Below are positions 153 to 18,800 of a stretch of DNA of 27,083 nucleotides, in pieces. Every line of letters begins with the position of its first letter. Positions within the stretch are counted from its first letter, which is position 1. The notes under the pieces are model-generated. The model made no database searches, was not told the DNA's origin, and was given only the letters and a program-made list of their open reading frames with translations. The DNA lies in the NCBI GenBank assembly GCA_009776495.1, contig WRNS01000001.1, forward strand, positions 1 to 27,083, read 5' to 3'. Position numbers and translations under genes: made by a program. The DNA comes from Methanobrevibacter sp. GTDB taxonomy: Archaea; Methanobacteriota; Methanobacteria; Methanobacteriales; Methanobacteriaceae.

Positions 153-749
153 TTGAAATATAGCTCTGGATTAATGGCACTTTCTTTTTGGTATATTGAA
201 ACAAAAAAAACAGCAAAATATTTGATTCAAGGATTATCTAGAAAAGAGATAATTGAATTAGCTATTGAAGAAAATATTTATCAGGTTGAAACGGAAAATC
301 GTAAAAAAAGAATAGCTAACACTTGTGTCACTCGTTTAATTAATTTTCCTACTATCCTTTTGGAAGATATTATAAATTCCGATATTACTTCTTCTAAAAT
401 GTTAGTATTAATAAGCATATTAAAAAATGATAAACTATTTTTCGAATTCATGCATGAAGTCTTTAGAAATAAAATAATTATTGGGGAAAAATATATTGAA
501 AAGAAAGACTTAAACATTTTTTTTGATGAAAAAAAACTTCAAAGCGAAACTGTAAATAACTGGGTTCCCAAAACAGTTCAAAGATTGAAATTAGAATATG
601 TTAATATTTTAAGAGAATCAGGGCTTTTAAGTTTTGAAAAAAAGGATAAAAAAGCTATAATTTTTCCTATTTTAGATTATAAAGTGGAACAAGATATTAT
701 TTCTAATAATTTGAGTCCTTATTTATATGTAATAACTGGAGAAAAATAA
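153..749 (+). CDS. brxA: BREX protein BrxA (DUF1819 family)
   Basis: 198-aa ORF with TTG start after AGGTGA SD (141-146); BrxA-like motifs (NIYQ..TENRKKRIA, KNDKLFFEFMHEV); first gene of the brxA-B-C order. Confidence 0.9.
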   Translation: MKYSSGLMALSFWYIETKKTAKYLIQGLSRKEIIELAIEENIYQVETENRKKRIANTCVTRLINFPTILLEDIINSDITSSKMLVLISILKNDKLFFEFMHEVFRNKIIIGEKYIEKKDLNIFFDEKKLQSETVNNWVPKTVQRLKLEYVNILRESGLLSFEKKDKKAIIFPILDYKVEQDIISNNLSPYLYVITGEK

Positions 750-763
750 TTGATGGTGTTTAA

Positions 764-1348
764 ATGGATATTGATGAAAAATTAAATAGAATTGAAGGAG
801 TTATTAAATCAAAATCTTTTAAAAAGGGTACAGGTCTTGGAAACGATATTCCTTACTATATTTTTGACTATAATCCTATCCATGAAATAAAAGTAAGAGA
901 TCATGTGGAATTTTTAAAAAATAAAATTAACAATAACTCTATTTCAGATTTTAAAATTGATGAATTTGATTTATATGATATTACAATAGAAATACTTAAA
1001 AACAAAAAGTATTTAGAAAAAGTTTTCGAATTTGAAGAAAAAAAAGGAAGAGAAAAAACTCAAAGTAGTGTAAACAAACTCCTTAGAATTAGTAGTGAGA
1101 ATTCAAATCTTATTGTAAATCACATAAAAACGAATATTTCAGAGGATTCAATTGTTTTCATCACGGGTGTTGGAAAGATTTATCCTATAATTAGATCTCA
1201 TGATGTATTAAATAATTTACATCATCATATTGATGAAATTCCCGTAGTATTGTTTTTTCCAGGAAGATATTCTGGTAATGAATTAGAATTATTCAATACA
1301 ATAAAAGATAATAACTATTATCGAGCTTTTCCATTAATTACTGATTAA
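764..1348 (+). CDS. brxB: BREX protein BrxB (DUF1788 family)
   Basis: 194 aa; motifs GLGNDIPYYIFDY, FITGVGKIYPIIRSH.VLNNL, PVVLFFPG.Y, DNNYYRAF typical of DUF1788; lies between brxA and brxC. Confidence 0.93.
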   Translation: MDIDEKLNRIEGVIKSKSFKKGTGLGNDIPYYIFDYNPIHEIKVRDHVEFLKNKINNNSISDFKIDEFDLYDITIEILKNKKYLEKVFEFEEKKGREKTQSSVNKLLRISSENSNLIVNHIKTNISEDSIVFITGVGKIYPIIRSHDVLNNLHHHIDEIPVVLFFPGRYSGNELELFNTIKDNNYYRAFPLITD

Positions 1349-1415: not shown

Positions 1416-4400
1416 ATGATTATTAAAGATATGTTTGAAAAACCTATTGATAGGGACATTAAAGGAGTCATTAAAGTAGGTCAAAAGACAGAAGAAAATA
1501 TATTTCAAGAATTAAATGAGTATGTTGTGACTAATGAGTTACAAAAACATTTTAGGGATTTTTTTGAAGGTTATGAAAAAGGAATCAACAATTTTACAGA
1601 TGAAATGGGGGTATGGATTTCAGGACATTTTGGAAGTGGGAAGTCTCACCTTTTAAAAATATTATCCTATATTTTAGAGAATAAAAAAGTAGAAGGTAAA
1701 CATGCTATTGATTTTTTTAAAAATCAGGGAAAAATTAAAGATCCCATTGTTCTTGCAAACATGGACGAATCTACTAATGTTTCTACTGATGTTGTTCTTT
1801 TTAACATAGATTCTAAAAGTTCAGGATCTGATAAAGATAAAGATCCTATTGTCAATGTATTTTTAAAAGTTTTCAATGAACTTCAGGGATTCTCTGGAGA
1901 ACATCCATCTTTAGCAGATTTTGAAAGAAATTTGACTAAAAAAGGAACGTATGAACAATTTAAAGAAGAATTTGAAAAAATTTCTTCTAATAGATGGGAA
2001 GATCAAAGAGATGATTTTCTATTTGTCCAAGATGATATTATAGAAGCTTTGGTGAAAATTGGATGGAGTGAAGATGCTGCTTCAAGATGGGCAGATAGTG
2101 CTGAAGAAAATTATAGTATTTCTATAGAAAAATTTGCAAGCTTGGTCAAGGAATACTGTGAAAGTAAAGGCTCCAATCACCATATAATATTTTTAGTGGA
2201 TGAGATAGGACAATATATTGGGGATAACTCTAAATTAATGCTTAATTTACAAACAGTCACCGAAGATTTAGGTATTCAATGTGGAGGTAAAGCATGGGTT
2301 ATTGTTACAAGTCAAGAAGCTATAGATTCTATGTTAGAAATTAAAGGACAGGACTTTTCTAAGATTCAAGGACGGTTTAAAACAAGGCTGTCTCTTTCAT
2401 CTGCAAATGTAGATGAAGTTATAAGAAGAAGAATCCTTGAAAAAGGAGATATAGCTACTGAATCTCTTGAAGCGCTATATGAAACAAAAGAAGCTATACT
2501 TAAAAATTTAATCACATTTACACAAGATACGGCATTTAAAAAAATGTATGGGGATAAAAAAGAGTTTAGTAACGTATATCCATTTATTCCATACCAATTT
2601 GATTTAGTTGCAAATGTTTTAAATGCTATTAGGATACATGGGGCTTCAGGTAAACATTTATCTGAAGGCGAAAGATCCATGTTAGCACTTTTCCAAGAAT
2701 CAGCTACAGAGATTATGGATAAAGAAACAGGAACTTTAGTTCCATTTTATATATTTTATGAAGCTTTACATAGGTTTGTGGACTCAACTCATAGTACTGT
2801 AATAATTAAAGCTGGAAATAACGAATATTTGGATAATTTTGATGTTAATGTTCTTAAAGTTCTTTTCATGATTAAATATGTGAAAGAAATTGACGCTAAT
2901 TTGGAAAATTTGACTACACTAATGGTAGATCATGTTGATGTAGATAGAATAGATTTAAATAAAAAAATAGCTAAGTCATTAAATAATCTTGAAAGAGAAA
3001 CTCTTATTTCAAAAAATGGAGATATTTATTCCTTTTTAACCAATGAAGAACAGGACATAAATAGAGCAATTAACAATGAAAATGTTGAAATTGGAGAAAT
3101 TCAAAATCATATTACTGAAGTTGTTTTTGAAGATATATACAATGCATCCAAGTATAGATATGATAATAGGTATAACTTTGACTTTAATAAAGCTGTGGAT
3201 GGAAGATATAAAGGAAATAAACAATCATCAGATATAGGACTCCATATAATAAGCTCTTATTATGAGTTTTCAAATTCTTCTTCAGAATCTCAAAGTACAT
3301 TGGCATCTCAAAATGATTATGAAAAAGAATCTTTAGCTTTAAAAGGCATGTCTGAATTAAATAAAGAAGTTATTATCAGGTTAAAAGATGATGAAATTAT
3401 TTTTGATGAAATAAGAGGAATGATACAAATAATTAGGTATTTAAATAAACAAAGCACTTCTTTTAGAGAAAGTTCAAAATCTATTATCAATGATAAAAAA
3501 CAAGAAGTTCAGGATAAAAAAGAAAGGATAAGATTAGCTATTGAAGAATCCCTACAAAGTTCTGATATATATGTTGATGGGAATAAAACAGAAATCAATG
3601 AAAAAAATGCGGTTATAAGGATTGATGATGGGTTAAAAAGATTAGTTGATAATGCTTACTATAAACTTTCTTATATGGAATCAAAACCAACAGAGGTAGA
3701 TATAAAAAATGTTTTACTTCATAGGTTAGAAGATAAATTTGCAGAATCTAAAGATCAGCTAGCTTTAGATGATTTAATTAGTCATATAGATAATCAAACT
3801 AAAATCGAAAAACCTTCTTTGAAAAGTATCATGGACCGGTATAAAAAAGCCCCTTATGGTTTTGTTGAAGATGATATTAAGTATTTAATAGCTACTTTAT
3901 TTGCAAATAAGTCTATTTATTTAATTAAAAACAGTCAACAAATTGTTCTTGGAAAAGATCGCCCAGAGGATATTTTAAAATCTTTTAAAACTAAAAGTGA
4001 ACAAGAGAAAATATTAATTGATAAAAAGCAAACAATAGAAAATATTAAAAAAACAACTGCTAAAGATATATTAAAAGAATTTTTTTCACTACAAAATGCT
4101 CCTGATGATCAGGAAGATTTAAAAGAAAAGTTTTTACAGGAATTAAACAATTATGATAAAATATTGGATGATATATTAGTGGAATACAAATTAGAAAGCA
4201 GATTCCCTGGAAAAAACATTGTTGAAAAAACAAAAGAATTATTTAAAGAAACAAAAAGAATAAATTCTACTAAAGATTTTTTTGATTTCATATCAGATAA
4301 TGAAGATGAATTTTTAGATCTTAGTGATGATTTAGATTATGTTAAACAATTTTTTGAAGGAAGTCAGAAAGAAATCTTCATCAATGCATGTAAAATATTG

Positions 4401-5000
4401 GCAATATTTGAAGCTAATGAACTTAAATTAAGAAATGAAGATTTAATTAATTTAAATGAAGAGATAAAAAGAATAATTTCAATGGATTCCCCTTATTCAA
4501 ACATACCAAAACTTCCTGAAATATATGGTGAATTCAAATCAATATATGAAAAGATTTTAGAAACTAAAAAGGGAAAAATTAGAGAAAATATTGATAGTAA
4601 TAAAACTCAAGTTTTAGAAATTTTAAATGATGAAATTTTGAAAAATGAATTTCAAGATAAAATTAATGTTAGATTTGAATCATTAGAAAATAAATTAAAT
4701 AACAAAACTGATGTTTATGGCTTAGATGAGTTCACTGATTTTTCTGATGATTTAAAAAATGAATTTTTTGAAAAAATTAGAAATTTTTTAGAAAAACAAA
4801 CTCCAGATTCAGGTGAGGGAGAGAAGCCAGTAATCCCTACTATTAAAACAATAAAAATAAAGAATATTTTAAATGAATCCTCATTATCCATAAAAAATGA
4901 AGAAGATATAGATATTTTCATTGAAAAACTTAAAAATAATCTTAAAAAAGAATTTGAAGAATTAAAAGATGAAAAAGGATCTATTAATTTGAAATTTTAG
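1416..5000 (+). CDS. brxC: BREX P-loop ATPase BrxC
   Basis: 1194 aa; N-terminal DRDIKGVIKVGQ, Walker A GHFGSGKS, Walker B FLVDEIGQYIG, VTSQE and KIQGRF motifs, long helical C-terminus. Confidence 0.95.
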   Translation: MIIKDMFEKPIDRDIKGVIKVGQKTEENIFQELNEYVVTNELQKHFRDFFEGYEKGINNFTDEMGVWISGHFGSGKSHLLKILSYILENKKVEGKHAIDFFKNQGKIKDPIVLANMDESTNVSTDVVLFNIDSKSSGSDKDKDPIVNVFLKVFNELQGFSGEHPSLADFERNLTKKGTYEQFKEEFEKISSNRWEDQRDDFLFVQDDIIEALVKIGWSEDAASRWADSAEENYSISIEKFASLVKEYCESKGSNHHIIFLVDEIGQYIGDNSKLMLNLQTVTEDLGIQCGGKAWVIVTSQEAIDSMLEIKGQDFSKIQGRFKTRLSLSSANVDEVIRRRILEKGDIATESLEALYETKEAILKNLITFTQDTAFKKMYGDKKEFSNVYPFIPYQFDLVANVLNAIRIHGASGKHLSEGERSMLALFQESATEIMDKETGTLVPFYIFYEALHRFVDSTHSTVIIKAGNNEYLDNFDVNVLKVLFMIKYVKEIDANLENLTTLMVDHVDVDRIDLNKKIAKSLNNLERETLISKNGDIYSFLTNEEQDINRAINNENVEIGEIQNHITEVVFEDIYNASKYRYDNRYNFDFNKAVDGRYKGNKQSSDIGLHIISSYYEFSNSSSESQSTLASQNDYEKESLALKGMSELNKEVIIRLKDDEIIFDEIRGMIQIIRYLNKQSTSFRESSKSIINDKKQEVQDKKERIRLAIEESLQSSDIYVDGNKTEINEKNAVIRIDDGLKRLVDNAYYKLSYMESKPTEVDIKNVLLHRLEDKFAESKDQLALDDLISHIDNQTKIEKPSLKSIMDRYKKAPYGFVEDDIKYLIATLFANKSIYLIKNSQQIVLGKDRPEDILKSFKTKSEQEKILIDKKQTIENIKKTTAKDILKEFFSLQNAPDDQEDLKEKFLQELNNYDKILDDILVEYKLESRFPGKNIVEKTKELFKETKRINSTKDFFDFISDNEDEFLDLSDDLDYVKQFFEGSQKEIFINACKILAIFEANELKLRNEDLINLNEEIKRIISMDSPYSNIPKLPEIYGEFKSIYEKILETKKGKIRENIDSNKTQVLEILNDEILKNEFQDKINVRFESLENKLNNKTDVYGLDEFTDFSDDLKNEFFEKIRNFLEKQTPDSGEGEKPVIPTIKTIKIKNILNESSLSIKNEEDIDIFIEKLKNNLKKEFEELKDEKGSINLKF

Positions 5001-5116
5001 TTTGTGATTTTCTTAAAGTAAAGTACTTATTCATAATTAGGTTTTTTTATTTATTTAATTGATTATTAAATATATTTTATGGAAACTATAGTTAAAAATT
5101 TTATAAAAAAAGAAAC

Positions 5117-6145
5117 TTGAAAAGTTCAACTGCTTCAGCGTATAATTCTGCTTTAAAGGATTACTCTAAATTTCACAATATGAGTATAAAAGACCTTATA
5201 AAAGAAGCTGATTATGAAGAAGAGAAAAGAATACGAGAAAAAAAAAGGACTATTAGAAAACGATTAGAAGAATATCGTAATTATAAAATTGAATATGGAT
5301 CTTCAAGAAGAACTATAAAAAAATATTTTGCAATGGTAAAAACTTTTTATAGGCATCATGAAATTATAATTCCATATATCCCTGAAGTTCAATTAAAAAG
5401 AGACTATCACGAAAAATATGAGGATATTCCTAAAATAAATCACATTAAAAAAGCAGTTGAATCAACAGATGATTTAATGGAAAAGGCCATTATTTTGTTC
5501 ATGAGTAGTAGTGGAACAGCACGGAATGAAACCTTAAGTTTAACTGTTGAAGATTTTTTTAAAGCATGTGAAAAATATATTAATATTGATATATATGATA
5601 AAAATATTAAGTACATCTTGGATGAGCTTTCTTCAAAAAATAATATAATTCCACTTTTTGAACTTGTAAGAATAAAAACAGATTATCATTACTATACTTG
5701 TTGTAGTGATGAATCTAGTGAAATGATTATAAATTATTTAAAAAACAAAAAAATGTTAAAATTAGAGTCTAAGCTATTTGATATGAATAGAAACAGGTTC
5801 AATAAATTTTTCATGAGGATTAATATGGATAATAACTGGGGTCAGGTAGGTTATTATGGATTTTTTAGGTCTCATGCTCTTAGAAAATTTCATGCAACAG
5901 TTATTGAGGATAAATCTTTAGCTGATGCATTGCAAGGTAGAAGAAGAGATAGTGTTACTGAAAGTTATTATAAATTAAATCCAGAAAGAATTCGAGAAAG
6001 ATATTTAGAAGTGTTTCACAAATTAAGAATCTTTCAAAAGCCAATCGAATTGAATAATGGTTATAATCAACTTAAAAAAGATAATGAAAGTTTAAATGAG
6101 AGATTGAAAAAATTAGAGGAATTAGTAAAAGGATTAGTAAAATAA
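5117..6145 (+). CDS. Tyrosine recombinase/integrase (XerC/D-like); true start probably ATG 5079 across an A7 frameshift
   Basis: Catalytic-type motifs SSGTARNE (R), RIKT (K), SHALRKFH (HxxR), LQGR, ESYY (Y); N-terminal SAM-like core-binding region; C-terminal coiled coil. Confidence 0.88.
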   Translation: MKSSTASAYNSALKDYSKFHNMSIKDLIKEADYEEEKRIREKKRTIRKRLEEYRNYKIEYGSSRRTIKKYFAMVKTFYRHHEIIIPYIPEVQLKRDYHEKYEDIPKINHIKKAVESTDDLMEKAIILFMSSSGTARNETLSLTVEDFFKACEKYINIDIYDKNIKYILDELSSKNNIIPLFELVRIKTDYHYYTCCSDESSEMIINYLKNKKMLKLESKLFDMNRNRFNKFFMRINMDNNWGQVGYYGFFRSHALRKFHATVIEDKSLADALQGRRRDSVTESYYKLNPERIRERYLEVFHKLRIFQKPIELNNGYNQLKKDNESLNERLKKLEELVKGLVK

Positions 6146-6353: not shown

Positions 6354-9300
6354 TTATAATTTCTTCAGTAGATTGATTTTTTTGTTTTCTACTTCTACAT
6401 TTTGGAATAGCTCATAATTATGTTTCACTCCGTCATCTAAGTCAATTTCTATCTGCTGATTAGCTACATGTCCAAGTGCTTTATCATATTTACGAGTTTC
6501 TTCAAGTTGTTTTTTAAGCTTAATGTTTTCTTTTGTTGCTTGAAATTTTTCATTAGAATTAGTAGAATTAATGATTACTTGTTCATTATGGTTAATTTGT
6601 TCTTCAAATGCTTTTTGGAGAGGATGAAGATAGTCTATTCTAACTCGAGCAACTGTATCCGGCGTATATCTATGCATGTATATCAGTGCTTTAAACCCAT
6701 CTTCTTTTCCACTATCAAATTGCCAATAGATAGGTGTTTTTTTAAACATCCGTTTATGGTCCTTGAAAAAGTCTTTTAAGAAGTATTTCCGGATTGTTTC
6801 TCTGTAAGTTTTTCCTTTATTTCCTAAAGCATTAGCTATGAATTTTATGTTTTCTTCTAAAGTTTCTTCTGAGAAGGTTACTTTTAGGAATTCTGTGAAT
6901 TTGCTTAGGATATCGTCCTCGAAAAATTCAGTGTCTGAAATAGGGACTATGTTATCTTCATCTGGGAGGAATTTTGAGTATTTTGAAGGGTTGTAATCCC
7001 CTCCAGCATATACAAGTCCTTCTTGGTCTAAGGAGTAACGACCAAACATGCAACCTGTGAAATATGAAAATAAGCTTTTAATATCTCTTTCTATTTCTGC
7101 GATTCTAAGCGAAGTGTCACTTCCATCCATTTCAACGATTGAATTTTTATTTAAGCCATATATTTCAATAAATATTTCATTCAATTTCTTTTCATTTTCC
7201 ATTAGCTGATAATAAATCGATTCACAATGATTATTCCATTTTTCAAAAGCATTCGATAAAAATTTTTCATTTTGTTGTAAGAATGGGTGTTTTTCAAAAT
7301 TCCAACTAGTTTCAAAACTATCCCAATCCATTTTTGATAATTTAATATTTTCTTTGACAATATCTCTTACTATATCAACAGAGTTTTCCGAATAAATTAT
7401 GGGTAATGATGATATATGACCTACTTCATAATTTAAAGTTGGAGAAATAAGCCCCAATATTTTACTACAAACTTGCGAGTTGAGAAAGCCTAAGAGATAC
7501 ATTTTATCCTCATCTGTAAATATTGAACATCCTGCGACATCAAACAAAAATCCACTCTGGAAAAATCTAAATGCAATATTTCCACTTGAAATTTTTGACC
7601 AACTAAGACTTTCTTTAAAATAACATGAAATACTTTTAATGGTTCTAGTGACTGAATTATATTTTGATTTTGCATATTCTTTAAGTTCTTTTCCATCTTT
7701 TTCATAGTTGATTAAATATTCTTGATTTCCATACCATTTTCTATAATTTCCTCCTTTGTTATAAGGAAACCATTTTTTACCTGAGTTCATAGCATGAGTA
7801 GCATCTGTCATTCCAAAACCAACTTTACAAATATCAACTTCATACCACATTTTTAAGAATCGATTGTTATCACCAGTAGAAAGTCCTTGTCGTGCAAGTG
7901 CAAATGAAGAGAAATTTTTCCCGTTTTTGAAAGCATTTATAAGCTGAGGTCCAGCCCAGTAGGCTATCGGATTTCCTGGAATAGCTGAAACCTTATCTAT
8001 TGCTGTGATAAAAATGTTTTCACGTTTCAAAAAAGATGTTTCTTTTAATTTTTGAGAATTTTTATCAGTCACTCTTATAAAAGAGGATAAGTATTCTTTT
8101 AAATTAGTTTTTCTAATGGAAAATGCTGTAGTTTGGACAACTTCTCCACCAATTTCTTCAAATGCTCTTGCACCTAAATGAACCATATTAATTATAGTAT
8201 TTTTCAGGATTTTTTCTCTTAGTTTTTCATAGCTTGATAAAAACATGAAGCTTTGCTGAGTAATCATGGAATAAAAACCGTTTTCTCTTGTAATGGAATC
8301 ACACTTTTCCATAAAAACTGAAAATAAGTCTCGTTTAGAATCTACGAAGTTTTTTTTCAAATAATTTGATAATTTACTACTCATTCCACTATTACCCATA
8401 TATGGAGGATTAGTGACGACAATTTCGTATTTTTGAGATAAAATATCAGCTTGTTTCAGCAAAGGATTGATTTTAATTTTTATTTCGTCAAAAAATCCAA
8501 TTTCTATTAAAGAACTTTGAGAAAGTGTAGTTAATTTATTTTTAAGAATTTTAAAATCAACATTTTTAACATCTAGTAAAGAACCGAAATATTTAGCATC
8601 TATGAAAACTTCTCTAACATATTTTAAATTTCTTTTTAAATCATGATTTTCTTTAGATAAGTAATCAATCAAATCTGGACTAATATCATTGCTTTCTTGT
8701 ATTGATGCTAAATTTAATTCTATATTTTCTTTAAAAATCTGTCTATGAAATGCTCTTGCTTTCATAAAAACTGCAAAATATGCTAGTTGGTATGCTCTGT
8801 CATCTATATCCAAACCAAAAAGATTATTTTTCAATATGCAAATACTTGCATCTTTTTTGTTATACCCTTGAGAAAGATATATTTGCATAAGAACATCGAA
8901 AAAATAGATTAAAACATGCCCACTACCCATACAAGGATCTATTACTTTAATATCTTCTATATTAATGTTTTCATTTTCTTTTTCAATTGATTTTAATTGT
9001 TTTTGAACTTCAGGTTTTTGTTCAGCTTCATCAATATAATATTCCCAATTCTTTTTGATTTCGTCATCAGGATGTGTTTCAACCCACAATCTGCCCAAAC
9101 TGTTTTCAACCATATATTTAACAATCCAATCTGGAGTAAACAGTTGTGTAGCTGCTGGTATACGTTCTTTAGTAATTTTAACTCTCTTCTTCAACTGTGC
9201 AAATGTTTCATCTTTTAGCTCTGCATTGTAATATTGGTATAGCCACCCAATTATTTCCACTTGATCTTTAAAATCTTCTTCAGAAATCAATTTTATTAAC

Positions 9301-9896
9301 TGTCTTACTATACCTTCTTCTTTGGTAAAGGAAATAGAAAGCAATAGTTCAAAATAGTCTTTAGTTTTTTCAAATAGTTCTGGGAGAATTGAATTTAATT
9401 CATTACATTGTTTAATAAATAAAAATTGAAACAATTCATCTAGTTTATTTTCATTTTTAAGAGAATATATAGTTTCAATTTCTTTTCCATCAAAATCTAA
9501 ACCAATGTTAGGAGCTTCTGTTATTATGTCGGGTTCTAACTTATTTTCAGTTTCACTCGAAAGAATTCTTATTTTCATTGGAAGATAATTATTAACCTCC
9601 ATAAATCGAATAGCTATTATTCTGTTAAACCAAGTGTATGCAACTTCTTCAACTACATTATCATAACCTTTTTCTTCAATTGCGATTATCAAATTTTTTC
9701 TCTGTTGAATTTCTTTTTTATACAATATTTTTGGATAAGAACTGCCAATATCATATATTTCTCTTTCAGAATCTTTTTGAGAAGGGTTTAAAATGTTATT
9801 TTCATTTATTCCAATTAAATTCATTTGATAGGCAACATCTTCTCTTAATTTATTTCTTGCGTTCATAGCAAAAGTTTTTATCGATTTCTTATTCAT
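6354..9896 (-). CDS. pglX: BREX adenine methyltransferase PglX (BrxX), full-length, cassette A currently attached
   Basis: 1180 aa from ATG 9896 (the ORF track extends to 9914); AATQLFTPDWIV, motif I IDPCMGSGH, motif IV NPPY, C-terminal PIYW.FDSGK and IDLDDGVK.NY motifs. Confidence 0.95.
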   Translation of the reverse strand: MNKKSIKTFAMNARNKLREDVAYQMNLIGINENNILNPSQKDSEREIYDIGSSYPKILYKKEIQQRKNLIIAIEEKGYDNVVEEVAYTWFNRIIAIRFMEVNNYLPMKIRILSSETENKLEPDIITEAPNIGLDFDGKEIETIYSLKNENKLDELFQFLFIKQCNELNSILPELFEKTKDYFELLLSISFTKEEGIVRQLIKLISEEDFKDQVEIIGWLYQYYNAELKDETFAQLKKRVKITKERIPAATQLFTPDWIVKYMVENSLGRLWVETHPDDEIKKNWEYYIDEAEQKPEVQKQLKSIEKENENINIEDIKVIDPCMGSGHVLIYFFDVLMQIYLSQGYNKKDASICILKNNLFGLDIDDRAYQLAYFAVFMKARAFHRQIFKENIELNLASIQESNDISPDLIDYLSKENHDLKRNLKYVREVFIDAKYFGSLLDVKNVDFKILKNKLTTLSQSSLIEIGFFDEIKIKINPLLKQADILSQKYEIVVTNPPYMGNSGMSSKLSNYLKKNFVDSKRDLFSVFMEKCDSITRENGFYSMITQQSFMFLSSYEKLREKILKNTIINMVHLGARAFEEIGGEVVQTTAFSIRKTNLKEYLSSFIRVTDKNSQKLKETSFLKRENIFITAIDKVSAIPGNPIAYWAGPQLINAFKNGKNFSSFALARQGLSTGDNNRFLKMWYEVDICKVGFGMTDATHAMNSGKKWFPYNKGGNYRKWYGNQEYLINYEKDGKELKEYAKSKYNSVTRTIKSISCYFKESLSWSKISSGNIAFRFFQSGFLFDVAGCSIFTDEDKMYLLGFLNSQVCSKILGLISPTLNYEVGHISSLPIIYSENSVDIVRDIVKENIKLSKMDWDSFETSWNFEKHPFLQQNEKFLSNAFEKWNNHCESIYYQLMENEKKLNEIFIEIYGLNKNSIVEMDGSDTSLRIAEIERDIKSLFSYFTGCMFGRYSLDQEGLVYAGGDYNPSKYSKFLPDEDNIVPISDTEFFEDDILSKFTEFLKVTFSEETLEENIKFIANALGNKGKTYRETIRKYFLKDFFKDHKRMFKKTPIYWQFDSGKEDGFKALIYMHRYTPDTVARVRIDYLHPLQKAFEEQINHNEQVIINSTNSNEKFQATKENIKLKKQLEETRKYDKALGHVANQQIEIDLDDGVKHNYELFQNVEVENKKINLLKKL
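8562..8576 (-). repeat. Inverted repeat, left copy (CTAGATGTTAAAAAT on minus strand), inside pglX encoding LDVKN
   Basis: Plus strand ATTTTTAACATCTAG is the exact reverse complement of 9962-9976. Confidence 0.9.
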
Positions 9897-9945
9897 ACAC
9901 AAACATCTTCCCATAATAGTTTAAATAAAAATTCTGTTATTAAAT

Positions 9946-9960
9946 AATTATATATTTTTC
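9946..9960 (-). promoter_or_regulatory. Candidate archaeal BRE-TATA promoter for pglX inside the invertible segment
   Basis: Minus strand reads GAAAAATATATAATT, about 50 bp upstream of ATG 9896; a second TATA-like TTTATTTAAA lies at 9920-9929. The AT-rich background lowers specificity. Confidence 0.4.
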
Positions 9961-9961
9961 T

Positions 9962-9976
9962 CTAGATGTTAAAAAT
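9962..9976 (+). repeat. Inverted repeat, right copy (CTAGATGTTAAAAAT), marking the 5' end of the headless pglX cassette
   Basis: Perfect 15-bp match to the reverse complement of 8562-8576; read in frame as LDVKN with the downstream ORF. Confidence 0.9.
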
Positions 9977-12211
9977 ATAAATTACGAAAATATTTCAAAT
10001 TTAGTACTTACTTCCATGAAAAAAACGACACTTACCGATGCAATACTTTCGGATGAAATAAATGATAAATTATTTCCTCTAATAAAGCAAGCAGAATTAT
10101 TATCTAAAAAATATGATGTTCTTGTGACAAATCCACCATATATGGGAATAAGAGGTATGAATAAAAAATTATCTGACTTCTTGAAAACAAACTTTAAAGG
10201 TAGTAAAAGTGACTTTTTTTCGGCTTTTGTAGAAAAATCATTTTCTTTCTGCAAATCCACAGGATATTTAGGGTTTTTGACACCATATGTTTGGATGTTT
10301 ATTAGTTCTTATGGGGATCTAAGAGAAAACATTATGAAAAATAAAACCATAACATCTTTAATACAATTTGAGTATAGTGCATTTGAAGAGGCTACAGTTC
10401 CCATATGTACTTTCACATTAAAAAACACTCATGAAAATATCTTTGGAAAATACATAAAATTATCTGATTTCCGAGGAGGAATGGAAGTTCAGGAAGCAAA
10501 AACCTTAGAGGCAATAACTAATCTTGATTGTGATTATCTATTTTGTTTTAATCAATTAAATTTTAAAAATATTCCTGGAAATCCTATAGCATTTTGGGCT
10601 GGACCTCAGCTTATAAATGCTTTCAAAAACGGGAAAAAACTATCTGAACTTGCAGATATTAAACAAGGACTTGCTACGGGAGATAACAAGAAATTTATAA
10701 GATTTTGGCATGAGGTAGATATTAATAAAATAGGGTTTGATTATAATCCAGAAAATGCTAAACAAAGTATCGAAAAATGGTTTCCGTATAATAAAGGAGG
10801 AAAATATAGGAAATGGTATGGGAATAATGAATTTATAGTGGATTATGAAGATAATGGAAAAAATATTTTGGACTACAAACAAAAAAAATTAAAAAAAGGA
10901 TTAATCGAAAAAAAGAATAGTGGATGTTGGAATAGTAATTTTTACTTCAGAGAAAGTCTCAGTTGGTCAAAAATTTCAAGTGGAAATATTGCATTTAGGT
11001 TTTTTCAAAATGGATTTTTGTTTGATGTTGCTGGTTGTTCTATATTTACCGAAGAAGATAAGCTGTATCTTTTAGGTTTTCTCAATTCACAAGTTTGTGG
11101 GAATATATTAGGACTTATCTCTCCAACCTTAAACTATGAAGTAGGGCATATTTCATCATTACCTATTATTTTTTCAGAAGATAAACTTCAAACAATCAAA
11201 GGGATAGTTAAAAAGAATATTGATTTATCAAAAGATGAATGGGATAATTTTGAAACTAGCTGGAATTTTAAAAAGCATCCTATTATCCAAACAGATAAAA
11301 AATTAATATCTGAAGCTTATGAAGATTGGGATGAAATTAGCAAAACTAATTTTTATAACTTAATGGAAAATGAAAAGCAACTAAACCAAATATTCTTTGA
11401 AATATATGATTTAAGAAATGATTCTTATCCTGAAATTGATGAAAGTAACATTGCACTCAGAAAAGCAGATTTAGAAAGGGATATAAAAAGTTTTCTATCA
11501 TATTTCCTTGGTTGTTTGATGGGTAGATACTCTTTAAATGATGAAGGGGTTATTTTTTCTGGAGGCGAATATAATCCCTCAAAATACTCAAAATTCATCC
11601 CAGATGAAGATAACATCGTCCCTATTTTAGACACAGAATACTTTGAAGATGACATCATAAAACAATTCACAGAATTCCTAAAAGTAACCTTCTCAGAAGA
11701 AACCTTAGAAGAAAACATCAAATTCATAGCTAACGCCTTAGGAAACAAAGGAAAAACTTACCGAGAAACTATCAGAAAATACTTCTTAACTGACTTTTAC
11801 AAAGATCATGTTAAAACTTACAAAAAAACGCCTATCTACTGGTTGTTTGATAGTGGTAAGGAAAATGGGTTTAAGGCTTTAATTTATCTTCACAGATACA
11901 CACCAGATACTGTTGCAAGGATAAGAACAGATTATCTCCATAAAACTCAAAAAGCAATAGAAACTTCAATAGCTAACAATGAACAAATAATACTTAATTC
12001 TACTAACCAAAAAGAGAAAAACCAAGCAACAAAAGATAACACAAAACTTAAAAAACAATTAGATGAAACAATAAAATATGATGAAGCTTTAGCTCACATA
12101 GCTAACAAACAAATTGAATTAGATTTAGATGATGGTGTTAAAGTAAATTATGCTAAATTCCAAGGAGTTGAAGTTGGAAATAAAAAAATCGATTTACTAA
12201 AAAAGATTTAA
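9962..12211 (+). CDS. pglX: Headless pglX C-terminal cassette B (motif IV plus target-recognition and C-terminal regions); ORF track starts at internal ATG 10016
   Basis: Open frame from the repeat (LDVKNINYENIS...) to the stop at 12211; has NPPY but lacks motif I and the first ~440 aa; colinear with the C-terminal 740 aa of the full gene; an in-frame TAA at 9941-9943 with no start codon before the repeat. Confidence 0.9.
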   Translation, partial: LDVKNINYENISNLVLTSMKKTTLTDAILSDEINDKLFPLIKQAELLSKKYDVLVTNPPYMGIRGMNKKLSDFLKTNFKGSKSDFFSAFVEKSFSFCKSTGYLGFLTPYVWMFISSYGDLRENIMKNKTITSLIQFEYSAFEEATVPICTFTLKNTHENIFGKYIKLSDFRGGMEVQEAKTLEAITNLDCDYLFCFNQLNFKNIPGNPIAFWAGPQLINAFKNGKKLSELADIKQGLATGDNKKFIRFWHEVDINKIGFDYNPENAKQSIEKWFPYNKGGKYRKWYGNNEFIVDYEDNGKNILDYKQKKLKKGLIEKKNSGCWNSNFYFRESLSWSKISSGNIAFRFFQNGFLFDVAGCSIFTEEDKLYLLGFLNSQVCGNILGLISPTLNYEVGHISSLPIIFSEDKLQTIKGIVKKNIDLSKDEWDNFETSWNFKKHPIIQTDKKLISEAYEDWDEISKTNFYNLMENEKQLNQIFFEIYDLRNDSYPEIDESNIALRKADLERDIKSFLSYFLGCLMGRYSLNDEGVIFSGGEYNPSKYSKFIPDEDNIVPILDTEYFEDDIIKQFTEFLKVTFSEETLEENIKFIANALGNKGKTYRETIRKYFLTDFYKDHVKTYKKTPIYWLFDSGKENGFKALIYLHRYTPDTVARIRTDYLHKTQKAIETSIANNEQIILNSTNQKEKNQATKDNTKLKKQLDETIKYDEALAHIANKQIELDLDDGVKVNYAKFQGVEVGNKKIDLLKKI

Positions 12212-12316: not shown

Positions 12317-12565
12317 ATGGGTGAAACAAGTAATCTTTATAAAGGTTTTCAAACTGTGGTTCCTTCTAAAATTAGGAAAAAACTTAATTTAGACTTGGAT
12401 TATGTTTTAGAATGGAGTATTAATGAAAATAATAAAGTTGAAATTGAGTTTCGCAAAAAAACAAACTTCATGGATTTAAATGGCTTAATTTCATCTAAAA
12501 AACTTAATGATTCTGTAAAACTTCAGCGAAAAATTAGACGTGGTGAAGATATTGATTTTCGTTGA
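12317..12565 (+). CDS. AbrB/MazE/SpoVT-family antitoxin (VapB-like)
   Basis: 82 aa; QTVVPSKIRKKLNL..DYVLEW pattern of swapped-hairpin DNA-binding domains; overlaps the downstream PIN gene. Confidence 0.8.
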   Translation: MGETSNLYKGFQTVVPSKIRKKLNLDLDYVLEWSINENNKVEIEFRKKTNFMDLNGLISSKKLNDSVKLQRKIRRGEDIDFR

Positions 12566-12941
12566 TACTTCTTTTATCATAGCATTTGTTAATGATAATG
12601 ATGGGAGACATAAAGAAGCTGTTGAATTAGCTAAAATAATAGAAAATGAAGAAAAAGTTGTTTCCTATATGATTATTGTAGAAGTACTAAATAATCTTAG
12701 AAAATTTAAAAAAGGAAAACTTAATCAGGAAGTTTATAGAATAATTAAAGATAACTTTAAAATTCAGGAAGAATCTATTAATCTTTATGATGATGCTTTA
12801 ATGACACAATTAAAGTATCATGGAAAATTAGGATTTGCTGATTGTGTCATAATTGAAACTATGAAAAGATTAAATTTAAATCAAATAGCTTCTTTTGATC
12901 AACATTTTGATGGAAAAGAGGGAATTGTTCGGATTTCATAG
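12552..12941 (+). CDS. vapC: PIN-domain ribonuclease toxin (VapC family)
   Basis: Likely TTG start at 12552 (MIFVDTSFIIA) 5 nt after a GGTGA SD; acidic PIN residues in VDTS, IVEV, FADC and SFDQHF. Confidence 0.88.
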   Translation: MIFVDTSFIIAFVNDNDGRHKEAVELAKIIENEEKVVSYMIIVEVLNNLRKFKKGKLNQEVYRIIKDNFKIQEESINLYDDALMTQLKYHGKLGFADCVIIETMKRLNLNQIASFDQHFDGKEGIVRIS

Positions 12942-12975
12942 TTTAGAAATTTTATAATCTTTAAGAGTGTATATA

Positions 12976-15477
12976 ATGAATCTTCAAAAAATACAGTCAA
13001 AGTTATTAGAATTATTTAGTACTGAAGAAAGGCAAATTGTCTTCTGGTATGATGATAAAGCTCAATTTCAAGAGGATATAGCTAATTTAGAATTAAATGA
13101 TATAAAAAAACATATTTTAACAGATTCCAACTGGATTCACACCAAATATCTTTTAGAAGTTGAGGATAAAGATAGTGACTATTTAATCTATGCTCCTTTT
13201 TCAAAACCTGATGATAGAGACAATAATCTCGCTGATACAGTATATTATTCAAAGGAGTTCTTTGCAGATAAGATATCTTTTCTTATGGAAGAGCTAAACA
13301 TTCCTAATAAGTTCAAATCTTCTTTTGAAAAGTACTCAAAATTTTTCAATTCACAAAAAAGAATTGATTCCTTTAAAGATTTTAACATAGAAAATTATAC
13401 TGATGAAAATATTATCATAGCTATTTTATCAGTTTTATGTAACCTTAATATACCTAACTTTGATGAGGTATTAAAAGAGTTATTAACCGAAGAAAATTTA
13501 AAAGAAAATAAACTCATAGAAAACTTTGAAAAGATGAATATTTTAAAGGATTTTTGGGATTTAGCTAAGAAAAAATATTCTTATATAGAGAAAAAACCTA
13601 ACTTAGAAAAGTTTTTCATCTCTTTAGTTTTAACGCATGCCTCAACTCAATTTGATGGAAACATCCCAAAAGCTTGGGAAAAACATATTTTAGAAAATAA
13701 AAATAACATTAAAGTTTTCATGAGTAATTTAATGAGTAATTCTAATTATAAAATTAAAAATCACACTTATCAAGAAATGTATGATATTAATGCAAAAAAA
13801 GTAGAGATTTTATTTAAAAACTCACTATCTAGAATTCCAGTAGATAGCTATAAAAACTGTGATACTTTTGAAATATTCGATATTAATATTATGGAATATA
13901 TAGCTGAATTATTAGTTAGTAATCAAGAATATAATCCTCATTTTAAGGAGTTAATCGAAAATAGGATAAAAACTCATTTTTATAAAAATTTCCTCAATGA
14001 ATACCATGTTTTAAAATGGGCTAATTTTTTAATAAAAAATATTAATCTGTTTACAAAAGAGTCTAGACCAAATTCTCCTGATGAAATAATAGCTAAATAT
14101 TCTAAAGAATGGTTTTTAATAGATAAAGCTTATAGAAAATTTTATTTTTATTATGCAAAAGTGAATGACAATTTTAAGGATTTAAGAGATTTAATTGAAA
14201 AAATGTATTCTAATAATTTTCTATATGACTTAGCTATTCACTGGGCTGAAAATTATAATCCTGATAAAAATTATATTTACCAAACTGATTTTTATAAAAA
14301 AGTAGTCTCTCCTAGAGTATCTCAGCATAGAACTGTTGTAATTATTTCAGATGCTTTGAGATATGAGTGTGGAGATGAGTTAAAAGACATACTTAATCAA
14401 GATGAACTTCGTGAAATTGACTTAAGTCCAATTATTTCAACGATACCATCTAACACTGAATTTGGTATGGCAGCATTACTTCCACATAATGATTTGTCTT
14501 TTCATGATAATTTATTAATTGATAATAATTCAACAAGGGGCTTGGATAATAGGCAAAAAATATTAAATAATTATTCAAGAGAAGCTTTAGCTGTTAACTA
14601 TGAAACATTAATGGATATGCATCATGAAGAGTTAAGAACATTCTTTAAAGATTATCAACTTATTTATGTCTATCATAATCAAATAGATGCACGAGGAGAT
14701 CATCTACCAAGTCAAAATGAAGTATTTATTGCCTCTGATGAAGCTATTAAGGAGATAGAAAAATTAATTAAAAGATTAACTAGTTATACTGGAACTTCTA
14801 ATTTCATAGTCACTGCAGACCATGGTTTTATTTATAGAAATGATTCTTTAAAAGAAAGTGATAAAATTGATATAAAGGATGGAGAAATATTCTCTAAAAA
14901 TAAAAGATTTTTATTATCAAACAATGAATTAAATATAAATGGAACATTTTCTCATAAAATACCTTATTTAAATAATGATTTATTTGTCACAGTTCCTAAA
15001 GGAATGGATATATTTAAAACTCAAGGTGGTGGTTTAAATTATGTTCATGGAGGAGCATCACTTCAAGAAATAATAATACCTCTACTTAAAGTCCGAGTAA
15101 AAAGTACTAAAAGAGAGAGTTCACAAGTTAAATTAAATCTAATTGCACCAATAAATAGAAGAATAACAAACTTAGAAACTCATTTAACTTTTGCTCAAAG
15201 CGATAAAATTTCTGATAAAGTTTTACCATTACAAGCATTAATTTATATTGAAGATGAGTATCAAAATAAAATTTCCAATGAAATCATAATTCATGCTAAT
15301 AAAACAGATGATGATCCAAAACTCTTGGAATTTAGAGAAAAAATCACAGTTAGAAATAAACAATATGATAAATCTAAAAATTATTATCTTGTAATAGAAG
15401 ATGAAGATAAAAATACGGAAATTGATAGATACGAATTTGTTATTGACTTAGCATTTGCAGATGAATTTGATTTCTAA
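12976..15477 (+). CDS. pglZ: BREX-1 alkaline-phosphatase-fold protein PglZ (BrxZ)
   Basis: About 833 aa from ATG 12976; IVFWYD, SDALRYE, IPSNTEFGMAALLP, YHNQIDARG, TADHGF, YVHGGASLQE motifs. Confidence 0.95.
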   Translation: MNLQKIQSKLLELFSTEERQIVFWYDDKAQFQEDIANLELNDIKKHILTDSNWIHTKYLLEVEDKDSDYLIYAPFSKPDDRDNNLADTVYYSKEFFADKISFLMEELNIPNKFKSSFEKYSKFFNSQKRIDSFKDFNIENYTDENIIIAILSVLCNLNIPNFDEVLKELLTEENLKENKLIENFEKMNILKDFWDLAKKKYSYIEKKPNLEKFFISLVLTHASTQFDGNIPKAWEKHILENKNNIKVFMSNLMSNSNYKIKNHTYQEMYDINAKKVEILFKNSLSRIPVDSYKNCDTFEIFDINIMEYIAELLVSNQEYNPHFKELIENRIKTHFYKNFLNEYHVLKWANFLIKNINLFTKESRPNSPDEIIAKYSKEWFLIDKAYRKFYFYYAKVNDNFKDLRDLIEKMYSNNFLYDLAIHWAENYNPDKNYIYQTDFYKKVVSPRVSQHRTVVIISDALRYECGDELKDILNQDELREIDLSPIISTIPSNTEFGMAALLPHNDLSFHDNLLIDNNSTRGLDNRQKILNNYSREALAVNYETLMDMHHEELRTFFKDYQLIYVYHNQIDARGDHLPSQNEVFIASDEAIKEIEKLIKRLTSYTGTSNFIVTADHGFIYRNDSLKESDKIDIKDGEIFSKNKRFLLSNNELNINGTFSHKIPYLNNDLFVTVPKGMDIFKTQGGGLNYVHGGASLQEIIIPLLKVRVKSTKRESSQVKLNLIAPINRRITNLETHLTFAQSDKISDKVLPLQALIYIEDEYQNKISNEIIIHANKTDDDPKLLEFREKITVRNKQYDKSKNYYLVIEDEDKNTEIDRYEFVIDLAFADEFDF

Positions 15478-15809: not shown

Positions 15810-18800
15810 ATGCCTAATAATGATGAAACATTCTACTTTTTAAAGGAAGATTTTCCTAAAATTGAAAAAATATGCATGACTGTAGAGGAAAATATCTATA
15901 CTAATCCTGTTTATGCAGTAATGGAAGGGAGAAAAGCAACAGAAAAAATACTTGATGAAGTTATAGATAAAGAAAGTCTTCAAATGTTAAAAAACAGTAA
16001 TTTAAATGAAAAAATCAACGAAATTAACAGTTTAAGCATTTTTTCCAAAGCAGGTTATGTTTTCAGAGCATTTGATTATAATAGAAAATTGGGGAACATA
16101 GCTGCACATCATGAAGTTCATAGTGAAATCACTACAGCTCTCAGAGTTCATGAAAATTTATTCACTATCGCCAAATGGTTTCATGATAAATATTTGGATA
16201 AATATGAAATAGGTGAATATAAAAATCCAATTCCTGAAAACCTAAAAAGTAAAAACAAATTTCTTGAAGAAGATATTTCTATATTGGATAATGATCAGAA
16301 TTATGAAGATTCACAAAACAATAAACATGATTATAAGAATTTGAGTTCTGAAAGTGATACTAACACTAATAAAATTAATGAAAATAGAACAAAAATAAGA
16401 AAAGATTCTTTTCCTGAGAAAACTTCATATACTCAAAGAAATACTAAGAAAATAAAATCATTTAATTTTAATGGAAATGAATATGTGGTAAGGAACTCTA
16501 AAGATCTTCTTTTACAATTATTGAGTATTTTATATAATTCAGAAAATGATTTTGATAAAGTTTTTCAGCTTAAAGGTAGAAATAAACCTTATTTTTCAAA
16601 AGATCCTGAAGTTTTAAGGTCTGCTAAATTAATCAAAGGTACAAACATTTATGCTGAAACAAATAGAAGCACTGAAAATATCATTAATTTTTCAAAAAAA
16701 TTATTGAATCAATTTAATTATGCACCTGAAACTTTAAAAATAACTTTTTATGATGATGTTTCTATAGATGAAGATAATCTTTTTTTGAAAAATAGAGGCT
16801 ATGGAAAAGAATTTTCAAGCAAACCATCCCTTAAGTTGGATAGCCATAAGAGTACAGAATCTAAAATTGATAATTCCAAAAATATTCCTAAAAAGAAAGA
16901 AGAGAATGAAAATCTAGATTATTATAAAATTACCATGAAAAATCTGAAAGGTTGGAACAAGGCAGTTTTTGATAAAATCACATTATTAAATTCTGAATTT
17001 TTCACTTATCAAAATCTTCTTGTTTTTATTCCAGATTTTCAAGAAATGTTTCCTAATAATTCTGCGATTGAATCAACAATTAGATTTACACTACAAAGAT
17101 TAAGAGATTTAGGTTTAATAGATTTTTTATCAAGGGGAAATTATAAAAATAAAGTGTTTTGTTACTTGCAATCATCAATCAATGAAAGAAAATATGAAAA
17201 TCCTATTCTGGAAGTTGCAGACAGTGAAAACAAATTTCTTGAAGAAGATGTTTCCATAATGGAGGATAATAATATAAATAAAGAAAAATCATTGAACAAT
17301 GGTTTTTCCGAAAATGGATATGAAAATTCGTCGGAAGAGATTTTTGAGCCTGAAATTTCTTATTTTAATAAGTCTAAAGATTTTTTAATTTCTAAAGGTG
17401 ATATAATTAATGTAAATGATACTGAGGATAAATATAACTTAAATGAAGCAACTGAATTAAATTCAAAGTTAAATAATCACTTTCTAGGAAAAGTAGTTAG
17501 AAAGGATTTAACAAAGAAAATAAAAGAAGGAGCCAATGTTCCAGTTTATGTTTTAGAATATTTACTTGGAAAGTATGCTACTGGTGTTGATGAACATCAA
17601 ATTCAAAAAGGTCTTGAAAAGGTTAAAAATATACTATCAGACAACTTTGTAAGACCTGATGAAGCTCAAAAAGTTATCTCTAAAATAAGAGAAATTGGTA
17701 GTTTTACTGTAATTGATAATGTTTCAGTAAAGTTAAATTATCATACTGATAATTATGAAGCAGAATTTTCTAATTTAGGCTTAAAAGGAGTTCCAATAGC
17801 TAAAAAGTTTCCAAAACAATACGAACGTTTGTTAGGAGGAAATATTTGGTGTATGATAAATTTTGAATATTATTTTGATGAGGCAGATCCAAAAAGAAAC
17901 CCTTTTATCATAAATAACTTAAGTCCAATACAGATGCCTAATTTAGATTTAGAGGAAATTTTAAATGCTAGAGAAAATTTTAGTAAAGGAGAATGGATTG
18001 ATATTCTTTTAAGATCTTGTGGTATGGAACCTAGTCAGCTAACTGAAAGAGTTAAATGGTTGCTCATTACAAGACTTGTTCCTTTAGTTGAAAATAACTT
18101 TAATCTCTGTGAATTAGGTCCAAGAAGTACTGGAAAATCTCATATATATAAAGAAATATCTCCTAATTCTATTTTAGTTTCTGGAGGTCAGACAACTGTA
18201 GCTAATCTTTTCTATAATATGTCCACTAAACTCGTTGGTCTTGTTGGTATGTGGGATTGTGTAGCTTTTGATGAAGTAGCTGGAATTAAATTTAGTGATG
18301 CTGATGGCGTAGCTATTATGAAAGACTATATGGCTTCAGGGTCTTTTTCTCGAGGAAAAGAAAAGAAAAATGCTTTAGCCTCAATGGTTTTTGTAGGAAA
18401 CATAAATCAAAGTGTGGATTATTTACTTAAAACATCAAACTTATTTACACCATTCCCTGGTGAAATTGCAAAGGATAGTGCATTTTTTGATCGTATCCAT
18501 TGTTATATTCCTGGATGGGAAATTCCGAAATTCAACCCAGAACATTTCACTAATGATTATGGATTCATTACAGATTATTTTGCAGAATTCATGCGAGAAA
18601 TGAGAAAAAGATCTTTCAGTGGTTCTTATCTGGAATATTTTAAATTAGGTCGTGATTTAAATCAAAGAGATACTATTGCAGTTAAAAAAATGGTCTCTGG
18701 CTTGATAAAACTCATTTATCCTAATGGAAAATATGATAAAGAAGATATTCGTGAACTTTTAATTCTATCTTTAGAATCCCGTAGAAGAGTAAAAGAGCAG

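Follow-up and report, generated by a model that had tools for sequence, protein, structure and literature searches.

A type 1 BREX locus from the archaeal family Methanobacteriaceae with a probable PglX specificity shufflon linked to a recombinase

The DNA analysed here, contig WRNS01000001.1 of the Methanobrevibacter sp. assembly GCA_009776495.1 (27,083 nt; hereafter the window), carries a type 1 bacteriophage exclusion (BREX) locus of a Methanobacteriaceae archaeon, in which the methyltransferase gene pglX and its surroundings probably constitute a recombinase-linked specificity shufflon. The expressed pglX gene is accompanied by an inverted, promoterless partial copy, with in-frame repeats at the borders (one of 15 bp, termed inverted repeat 1 or IR1, and others of 44, 38 and 40 bp) and a recombinase gene as neighbour. 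We infer that, in the organism from which the window derives, this recombinase inverts a part of pglX and that the two resulting forms of the enzyme mark different DNA motifs.

The 5′ part of pglX (predicted promoter region, N-terminal domain and methyltransferase (MTase) motifs I–III; together the head) resides on a 1385-bp segment flanked by two divergent cassettes, A and B. According to the mechanism we propose, the adjacent tyrosine recombinase would act on the 15-bp repeat and invert this segment, thereby separating the head from cassette A and joining it in frame to cassette B, to give a 1189-aa PglX co-oriented with pglZ–brxL. The flip would alter the BREX motif, for methylation as well as for exclusion. 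Further exchanges at repeats in the hinge and in the target recognition domain (TRD), either alone or nested with IR1, would be expected as well, and the number of PglX alleles is, judging from these repeats, likely to exceed two.

Anatomy of the pglX head and its two cassettes

The 15-mer CTAGATGTTAAAAAT is present exactly twice in the window, once on either strand (IR1; Table 1), and its only further match (two mismatches, position 21996) is unrelated. Both arms encode LDVKN in frame, and BLASTP similarity between PglX and cassette B opens right at the repeat, with PglX aa 447 corresponding to cassette aa 1, and reaches the last residue (60% identity over 754 columns). IR1 stands out as an island: on its upstream side the two copies agree at 42% of 24 nt and on its downstream side at 43% of 60 nt, about the random level for DNA of 26% GC. 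For any given place, an exact match of 15 nt would arise by chance with a probability of ~3e-6. Motif I (DPCMGSGH) lies inside the head and motif IV (NPPY) inside the part that would be swapped. The 65 bp of upstream DNA that share the segment with the head comprise a TATA-like element, AAAAATATATAA, as the predicted promoter.

Cassette B is a headless pglX copy, the frame of which opens 6 codons upstream of position 9962 (at the nearest in-frame stop). Its 749 open codons compare with 110 or fewer in the other frames (chance probability ~1e-31), and NPPY is present. The computed junction between head and cassette B is likewise open, yielding a product of 1189 aa; current PglX measures 1180 aa when counted from the ATG at 9896. 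An earlier note on this DNA, made from its letters, had anticipated much of this anatomy. Exact search returned precisely the two copies of the perfect repeat that it had described, translation reproduced LDVKN in both arms, and the alignment placed the start of homology where the note had put it, at the repeat. Motif I was located within the 440-aa head, as claimed, and the 749-aa cassette B co-oriented with the operon and both product lengths hold.

Might cassette B be expressed on its own, as a headless protein? We rejected this option, as no start codon is conserved across lineages and the product would comprise only half a Rossmann fold.

Apart from IR1, the two cassettes share three longer exact repeats, IR2 to IR4 (Table 1), located at the hinge between MTase domain and TRD, between the two TRD subdomains, and in the C-terminal domain. 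A hinge repeat also exists in two related loci introduced below (53 bp exact in L021, 218 bp exact in L033), where it ranks as the longest or second-longest repeat. From their sequence, IR2–IR4 may serve as extra crossover sites, bear the traces of gene conversion, or combine the two. Indeed, gene conversion does occur, as is evident from homogenised stretches between A and B: identity rises to 87% at the amino acid level over aa 782–820 in the window, and identical tracts extend up to 228 bp in L033.

Related loci and inversions in Methanobrevibacter smithii

An identical architecture (brxABC, recombinase, reversed cassette A, head, cassette B, pglZ) was found in Candidatus Methanoflexus mossambicus (locus L021) and in a metagenome contig (L033), whose recombinases share 74% and 67% identity, respectively, with that of the window; the recombinase gene also adjoins the pglX locus in L013 and L016. 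Both L021 and L033 possess an exact repeat of their own at the homologous codons, following a conserved AK..GSL motif (24 bp, TTGAATGTAAAAGCACTAAATTAT, in L021; 16 bp, CTTTACTAAATGTAAA, in L033). The repeats at this position are mutually different among the three lineages and the arms are identical within each locus; hence, both arms changed together. The headless cassette is intact in all three lineages, spanning 740–767 codons. Over module 1 (aa 515–626), cassettes A and B each resemble the cassette at the same position in the other genus far more closely than their own paralogue (87% and 84% vs. 44% identity at aa 555–593), implying that the A and B alleles are older than the genera and have been kept. 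In a segment-wise search among the window, L021 and L033 for crosswise orthology, as past internal inversions would leave it, module 1 pairs straight (A with A, B with B), and later segments are blurred by homogenisation.

Additional copies of the repeat cores exist between the pglX start and cassette B of the relatives (TTGAATGTAAAA in L021, positions 16209–16235; TAATGTAAAA twice in L033, ~14690–14740). From their sequence, these copies may serve the recombinase as accessory sites or be mere remnants; the window showed no equivalent. Locus L048 also has an L033-type core, which precedes a headless cassette but does not share its reading frame, and was set aside as uninformative. The Ca. Methanoflexus mossambicus genome (G029) contains two separate BREX-1 loci, L013 and L021. 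Each comes with a recombinase gene, whose product is 82% (L013) or 74% (L021) identical to that of the window, and two more recombinase paralogues occur elsewhere in the genome (64% and 46%). Duplication of pglX also occurs without an inversion layout, namely in a recombinase-less BREX-1 locus with a second full-length pglX after brxL (L046; JGI 3300001682 contig) and in genome G131, with two full-length pglX genes (L079).

In total, 314 Methanobacteriaceae genomes were searched, 23 of which have pglX heads; in ~10 of these 23, headless cassettes and/or a recombinase homologue were detected. In the complete Methanobrevibacter smithii genome G209 (1,853,160 bp), locus L086 combines five cassettes with a recombinase 47% identical to that of the window, and an expressed pglX stands head-to-head with a headless cassette beside brxA, a topology as in the window. 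Overall, M. smithii recombinases share 45–47% identity with the window's, and the PglX head 61%. Public assemblies hold 76 distinct protein clusters (at 90% identity) with the same M. smithii head (≥95%) but differing tails.

Comparison of M. smithii sequences revealed an equivalent inversion and resolved several exchanges. In L106 relative to L098, which represent near-identical strains, only the 1.33-kb segment with head and promoter is inverted, the crossover falling within an 8-bp repeat (ACAAGACA). A second type uses the hinge: protein P0122 follows the reference over residues 1–656 and, from residue 655 onward, is 100% identical to a silent cassette of the reference genome, and its contig displays a 3.15-kb inversion between two hinge repeats. 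Between L100 and L098 (99.96% identical), two module-1 segments of ~650 bp are swapped reciprocally and the intervening 1.33-kb head is 100% identical and colinear, a constellation that needs two nested inversions. Both gene orientations are represented: in four samples pglX reads in the direction of brxA and lies immediately before it, and in six other contigs it points the opposite way. Crossovers within 7–8 bp of identity, together with the reciprocal nature of the exchange, point to site-specific recombination, and by the same measure the 15-bp repeat of the window is ample.

The second M. smithii pglX, beside the recombinase, is split in L086 (8517–9164 and 5594–8710) by inversion of a 460-bp segment (head aa 6–152). 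In the reference and in L099, the inverted segment leaves open reading frames (ORFs) of 1038 and 144 aa; in L098 (17150–17609) it has the opposite orientation and the second pglX is intact (1181 aa). This looks like an ON/OFF switch inside the head.

The recombinase, predicted specificity and competing explanations

The AlphaFold model of the window's recombinase, computed with 24 homologues, reached a predicted local distance difference test score (pLDDT) of 88.9 and adopts the two-domain tyrosine recombinase fold. The top 41 Foldseek matches in the PDB were all tyrosine recombinases (probability 0.99–1.00), among them archaeal XerA (5hxy; E = 2e-6), XerH, lambda Int, Cre and IntI. Catalytic residues were assigned by alignment in combination with the model: K187, H253-x-x-R256 and Y284 are invariant in the 24 homologues, R136 is present in the window and replaced by K in one paralogue, and R275 occupies the usual His/Trp position. 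The protein belongs to a divergent tyrosine recombinase subfamily. Co-occurrence suggests it as the enzyme acting at IR1, as among 20 Methanobacteriaceae loci its homologues were found only beside pglX with extra headless cassettes or pglX cut by a contig end, and at none of the loci with a single intact pglX.

As for the consequences of a flip, both cassettes were mapped by alignment onto the E. coli BrxX–DNA structure (PMC11842806) and onto Salmonella PglX (PMC11341690). In E. coli BrxX, an MTase loop (residues 587–601) reads base pair 6, the first TRD subdomain reads base pairs 1–2, and residues 390–500 constitute a BrxX-specific insertion of the MTase domain (PMC11842806). The IR1 position falls in this insertion, by alignment a tolerant spot for cutting and rejoining PglX. 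The exchanged part begins before motif IV and covers both the base-pair-6 loop and the first TRD subdomain. In the equivalent of loop 587–601, cassette B has a 3-residue deletion and differing residues. At TRD positions, A and B carry Q and Q at the equivalent of K681, S and A at D684, and K and W, with a longer loop, at R751; in the second TRD subdomain, the two agree at the equivalents of Q784 and N823. Given these differences in the base-pair-6 loop and in the subdomain for base pairs 1–2, a flip should alter the BREX motif, for methylation and exclusion alike, and we expect the motifs of head + A and head + B to differ at positions 1–2 and/or 6.

Several observations weigh against an active switch in the window's lineage. 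In each of the four assemblies with this locus type, pglX points against the operon (the 'anti' state): the window itself, the independent assembly L032 (two single-nucleotide differences in 22 kb, both outside the switch), L021 and L033. The product of head and cassette B is absent from a set of 5.8 billion proteins, which returned only the headless cassette (100%) and relatives of up to 64% identity; searches with the 6-kb switch region, and then with the head alone, found no sequencing run. Compared with the window's site, the M. smithii crossover is displaced by ~23 codons in the upstream direction and differs in sequence, so the site is not conserved across the family; by analogy, the mechanism and topology would carry over from M. 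smithii to the window, the site itself would not. A degenerate core derived from the three lineages' repeats (YTRRATGTWAAA) is not enriched in the window. The recombinase scores below the threshold of Pfam PF00589 (21.0 vs. 27.1 bits), and a profile of six homologues obtained no sequence match in the PDB. Finally, its ATG is out of frame owing to an A7 tract, and a start would need a TTG 13 codons further in, or slippage.

The metagenome-assembled genome (MAG) of the host has no contig with the alternative junction, only self inverted matches; the NCBIfam XerA match of the recombinase lies far under its cutoff; and dyad symmetries seen by eye are no more than expected for AT-rich DNA. Three lineages in one state would arise with P ~0.25, which is not significant, and M. 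smithii commonly shows both orientations; we therefore rejected the notion of 'anti' as the only stable state. Flipped relatives, which the earlier note had envisaged, were missing among the four assemblies, with both orientations present in the homologous M. smithii locus. G302 (L084) was considered as a flipped relative, its pglX being co-oriented with brxA, and discarded since the assembly lacks a second cassette and a close recombinase. Three MAG contigs end inside pglX cassettes (L013, i.e. G029:C80; G005:C204; L047), with ends at aa 765 (a SWSKISSGN repeat), aa 603 and cassette aa 33. Such ends would fit branching of the assembly graph caused by mixed orientations within the sampled populations, although they are only suggestive.

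How IR1 relates to the longer repeats is a question in itself. One could imagine a shufflon with many sites, in which IR1 plays a minor part and the repeats of 44, 38 and 40 bp generate mosaic PglX proteins, often through two nested inversions that restore orientation. We consider this possible but unlikely. The longer repeats of the window are exact and those at the hinge recur in L021 and L033; the hinge is a demonstrated crossover in M. smithii, where module 1 was also swapped with the head unmoved; the 'anti' orientation has been kept in three lineages; and states reached by a single inversion are rare in Lacticaseibacillus rhamnosus pglX (Milman et al. 2023, PMC9881135). However, the long identical blocks may just as well be gene-conversion tracts, module 1 is related in a straight positional manner between the window and L021, with nothing crosswise, and a module-1 swap would require IR1 as one of its two sites anyway. 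Moreover, single head flips are common in M. smithii. The two-state, recombinase-driven switch put forward in the earlier note is partly supported. Its invertible head is backed by geometry and reading frame, conservation of the repeat position, the intact silent cassette, the fold of the neighbouring recombinase and M. smithii; 'two-state' is probably too narrow, as the internal 38–44 bp repeats, located at the hinge and within the TRD, match the places of recombination in M. smithii.

Alternatively, the layout might be a frozen relic, built by past inversions and now fixed in one state with a compromised recombinase start. The misplaced ATG, the uniform orientation of every assembly of the locus type and the absence of the flipped product from databases would all be explained. 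Still, we regard a relic as improbable. The A7 form, in which a TGA overlaps the TTG start, is conserved in three loci (window, L013 and L021) whose recombinases are only 74–82% identical; its retention across proteins this divergent looks like maintenance, in a low-expression or phase-variable form, rather than decay. Elsewhere the ATG is in frame (A8 in L033, an interrupted run in L016, and M. smithii). The A7 arrangement may reflect homopolymer phase variation, or translational coupling that restricts expression of the invertase. Besides, recombinase ORF and silent cassette are intact in all lineages, and IR1 is still perfect. Least credible to us is the idea that the 15-mer is no recombination site, its identity being left over from common ancestry or from one-way gene conversion through homologous recombination, with cassette B serving as donor only. 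Conversion does leave long identical tracts and homogenised regions in these loci, yet the 15-mer is embedded in unrelated or ~43% identical sequence, unlike a conversion tract, and is short for homologous recombination. The same-codon islands of different sequence in two other lineages, and the M. smithii crossover inside 7–8 bp of identity with reciprocal exchange, argue in the same direction. Inversion of the head at IR1 by the neighbouring recombinase, with additional exchange at the internal repeats, therefore remains our preferred explanation.

The BREX locus, its host and known systems

All six type 1 BREX genes (brxA, brxB, brxC, pglX, pglZ and brxL) are present in the window, each with a Pfam match. 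They are arranged in the order brxA, brxB, brxC, recombinase, pglX (minus strand), headless pglX (plus strand), a small ORF, a PIN gene, pglZ and brxL. The full pglX extends on the minus strand from 9914 or 9896 down to 6354, against the direction of the operon. Its product scores 1421 bits over the whole gene against NF033452, the BREX-1 PglX model (cutoff 500), aligns over its full length to Salmonella PglX (8c45; E = 2e-244) and E. coli BrxX (9ewz), and displays the features of a gamma-class N6-adenine MTase: motif I (with GxG), motif IV, TRD and C-terminal domain. The window constitutes an entire contig (C1) of the host MAG (1.53 Mb, 27% GC, 69% complete), whose nearest named relatives are termite-gut Methanobacteriaceae (Ca. 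Methanoflexus, Ca. Methanovirga) and Methanobrevibacter.

Table 1. Features of the BREX locus in the window, with the repeats shared by the two pglX cassettes
Feature	Position	Strand	Description
brxA	153–749	+	Pfam BrxA, 1e-49
brxB	764–1348	+	Pfam BrxB, 6e-45
brxC	1416–5000	+	Pfam BrxC domains, 4e-37
13-codon upstream frame	5079–5120	+	ATG at 5079, A7 tract at 5105–5111, TGA overlapping the recombinase TTG start (5117)
Tyrosine recombinase, candidate invertase	5117–6145	+	342 aa; AlphaFold and Foldseek, catalytic residues
Cassette A	6354–8561	-	C-terminal 735 aa of current PglX: rest of MTase from motif IV, TRD, C-terminal domain; aligned to Salmonella and E. coli structures
IR4	6862–6901 / 11664–11703	- / +	40 bp exact; C-terminal domain
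IR3	7567–7604 / 10961–10998	- / +	38 bp exact; SWSKISSGNIAF; between the two TRD subdomains
IR2	7915–7958 / 10595–10638	- / +	44 bp exact; WAGPQLINAFKNGK; MTase/TRD hinge
IR1, left arm	8562–8576	-	LDVKN, PglX aa 447–451 (numbered from ATG 9914)
Segment between IR1 arms	8577–9961	-	1385 bp; PglX head aa 1–440 (from ATG 9896; N-terminal domain and MTase motifs I–III) and 65 bp of upstream DNA
IR1, right arm	9962–9976	+	LDVKN, codons 1–5 of cassette B
Cassette B	9962–12211	+	Headless 749-codon pglX copy, open throughout; NF033452, 858 bits, profile positions 481–1209
pglZ	12967–15477	+	Pfam PglZ, 4e-52; with brxL rounds out the BREX-1 set
brxL	15810–19442	+	Pfam BrxL_ATPase, 1e-140

Some neighbouring features vary between loci. 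The stretch between cassette B and pglZ (12317–12941) contains the small ORF and the gene for a VapC-like PIN-domain protein (Pfam, 2e-17); at the same spot, L021 has no insert and L033 three other ORFs. BrxL comprises 1210 aa, including an N-terminal extension of ~550 aa that matches DUF4145 and DpnI_C (a Dam-replacing helix-turn-helix domain), and the BrxL proteins of relatives align to it only from aa ~535 onward.

Looking beyond this locus, we lean, if narrowly, towards the view that Methanobacteriaceae, including M. smithii as the main methanogen of the human gut, run active PglX shufflons driven by tyrosine recombinases, in which a promoter-bearing head flips and modules (the base-pair-6 loop and the TRD part for base pairs 1–2) are exchanged at cores of 7–15 bp. 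If true, the archaeal methylome and virus exclusion would vary combinatorially at the population level, and no specificity shufflon of an archaeal defence system would have been documented earlier, as far as our literature searches reach; these returned no account of pglX shufflons from archaea. Chromosomal invertons have barely been studied in Archaea, and the present loci provide a methanogen family with recombinase-linked pglX cassettes. The M. smithii literature found offers no more than a statement that PglX 'appears twice' (PMC12487256), and Chanin et al. had only 42 archaeal long-read sets (PMC10028968); a review of epigenetic invertons is available (PMC7672463). The M. smithii comparison supplies base-precise junctions in a cultivable, medically relevant archaeon, making epigenetic switching and virus–host dynamics in the gut testable. 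Naturally occurring chimeras in which MTase loop and TRD subdomains are swapped separately also offer tests of the modular recognition model derived from the E. coli and Salmonella structures.

Long-read data have confirmed inversions of pglX in L. rhamnosus and Brevibacterium casei (Milman, Yelin and Kishony, Nucleic Acids Research 2023; PMC9881135), in keeping with the remark of the earlier note that rearrangements with partial copies beside recombinases had been reported; PglX annotations are ~21-fold enriched among predicted bacterial inversion targets (PMC9881135). Like the window, these bacteria combine type 1 BREX, an inverted partial pglX beside a recombinase, and in-frame inverted repeats (PMC9881135). 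In these species, the expressed copy keeps its place in the operon, and only a middle or 3′ part of it is exchanged, by two nested inversions in L. rhamnosus. In the archaeal window, by contrast, the 5′ head and its upstream region are the invertible piece, situated between two complete, divergent cassettes, and the direction of the gene relative to the operon would change. The principle of PglX inversion is thus established in bacteria, and what is new here is the archaeal host and the head-flipping layout. M. smithii stands closest: it is likewise a member of the Methanobacteriaceae, with homologous recombinase and head, and has head and promoter between head-to-head cassettes. Its shufflon is located upstream of brxA, with five cassettes and a second pglX; that of the window lies between brxC and pglZ.

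Switching of pglX cassettes was reportedly proposed by Goldfarb et al. as early as 2015. Among other switches of methylation motifs, the type I hsdS shufflons (e.g. SpnD39III/ivr of Streptococcus pneumoniae, with PsrA/CreX) also have a tyrosine recombinase beside the locus and in-frame inverted repeats of widely varying length in the specificity genes, one of them reportedly of 15 bp. They shuffle separate specificity subunits (TRD halves), whereas the window would swap part of the catalytic domain along with the TRD of a single-chain gamma-class MTase. In Campylobacter fetus sapA, a promoter segment flips between opposed homologous cassettes of S-layer genes in a RecA-dependent manner, so that one of several alleles is expressed; its invertible piece, unlike that of the window, is devoid of an enzyme-coding head.

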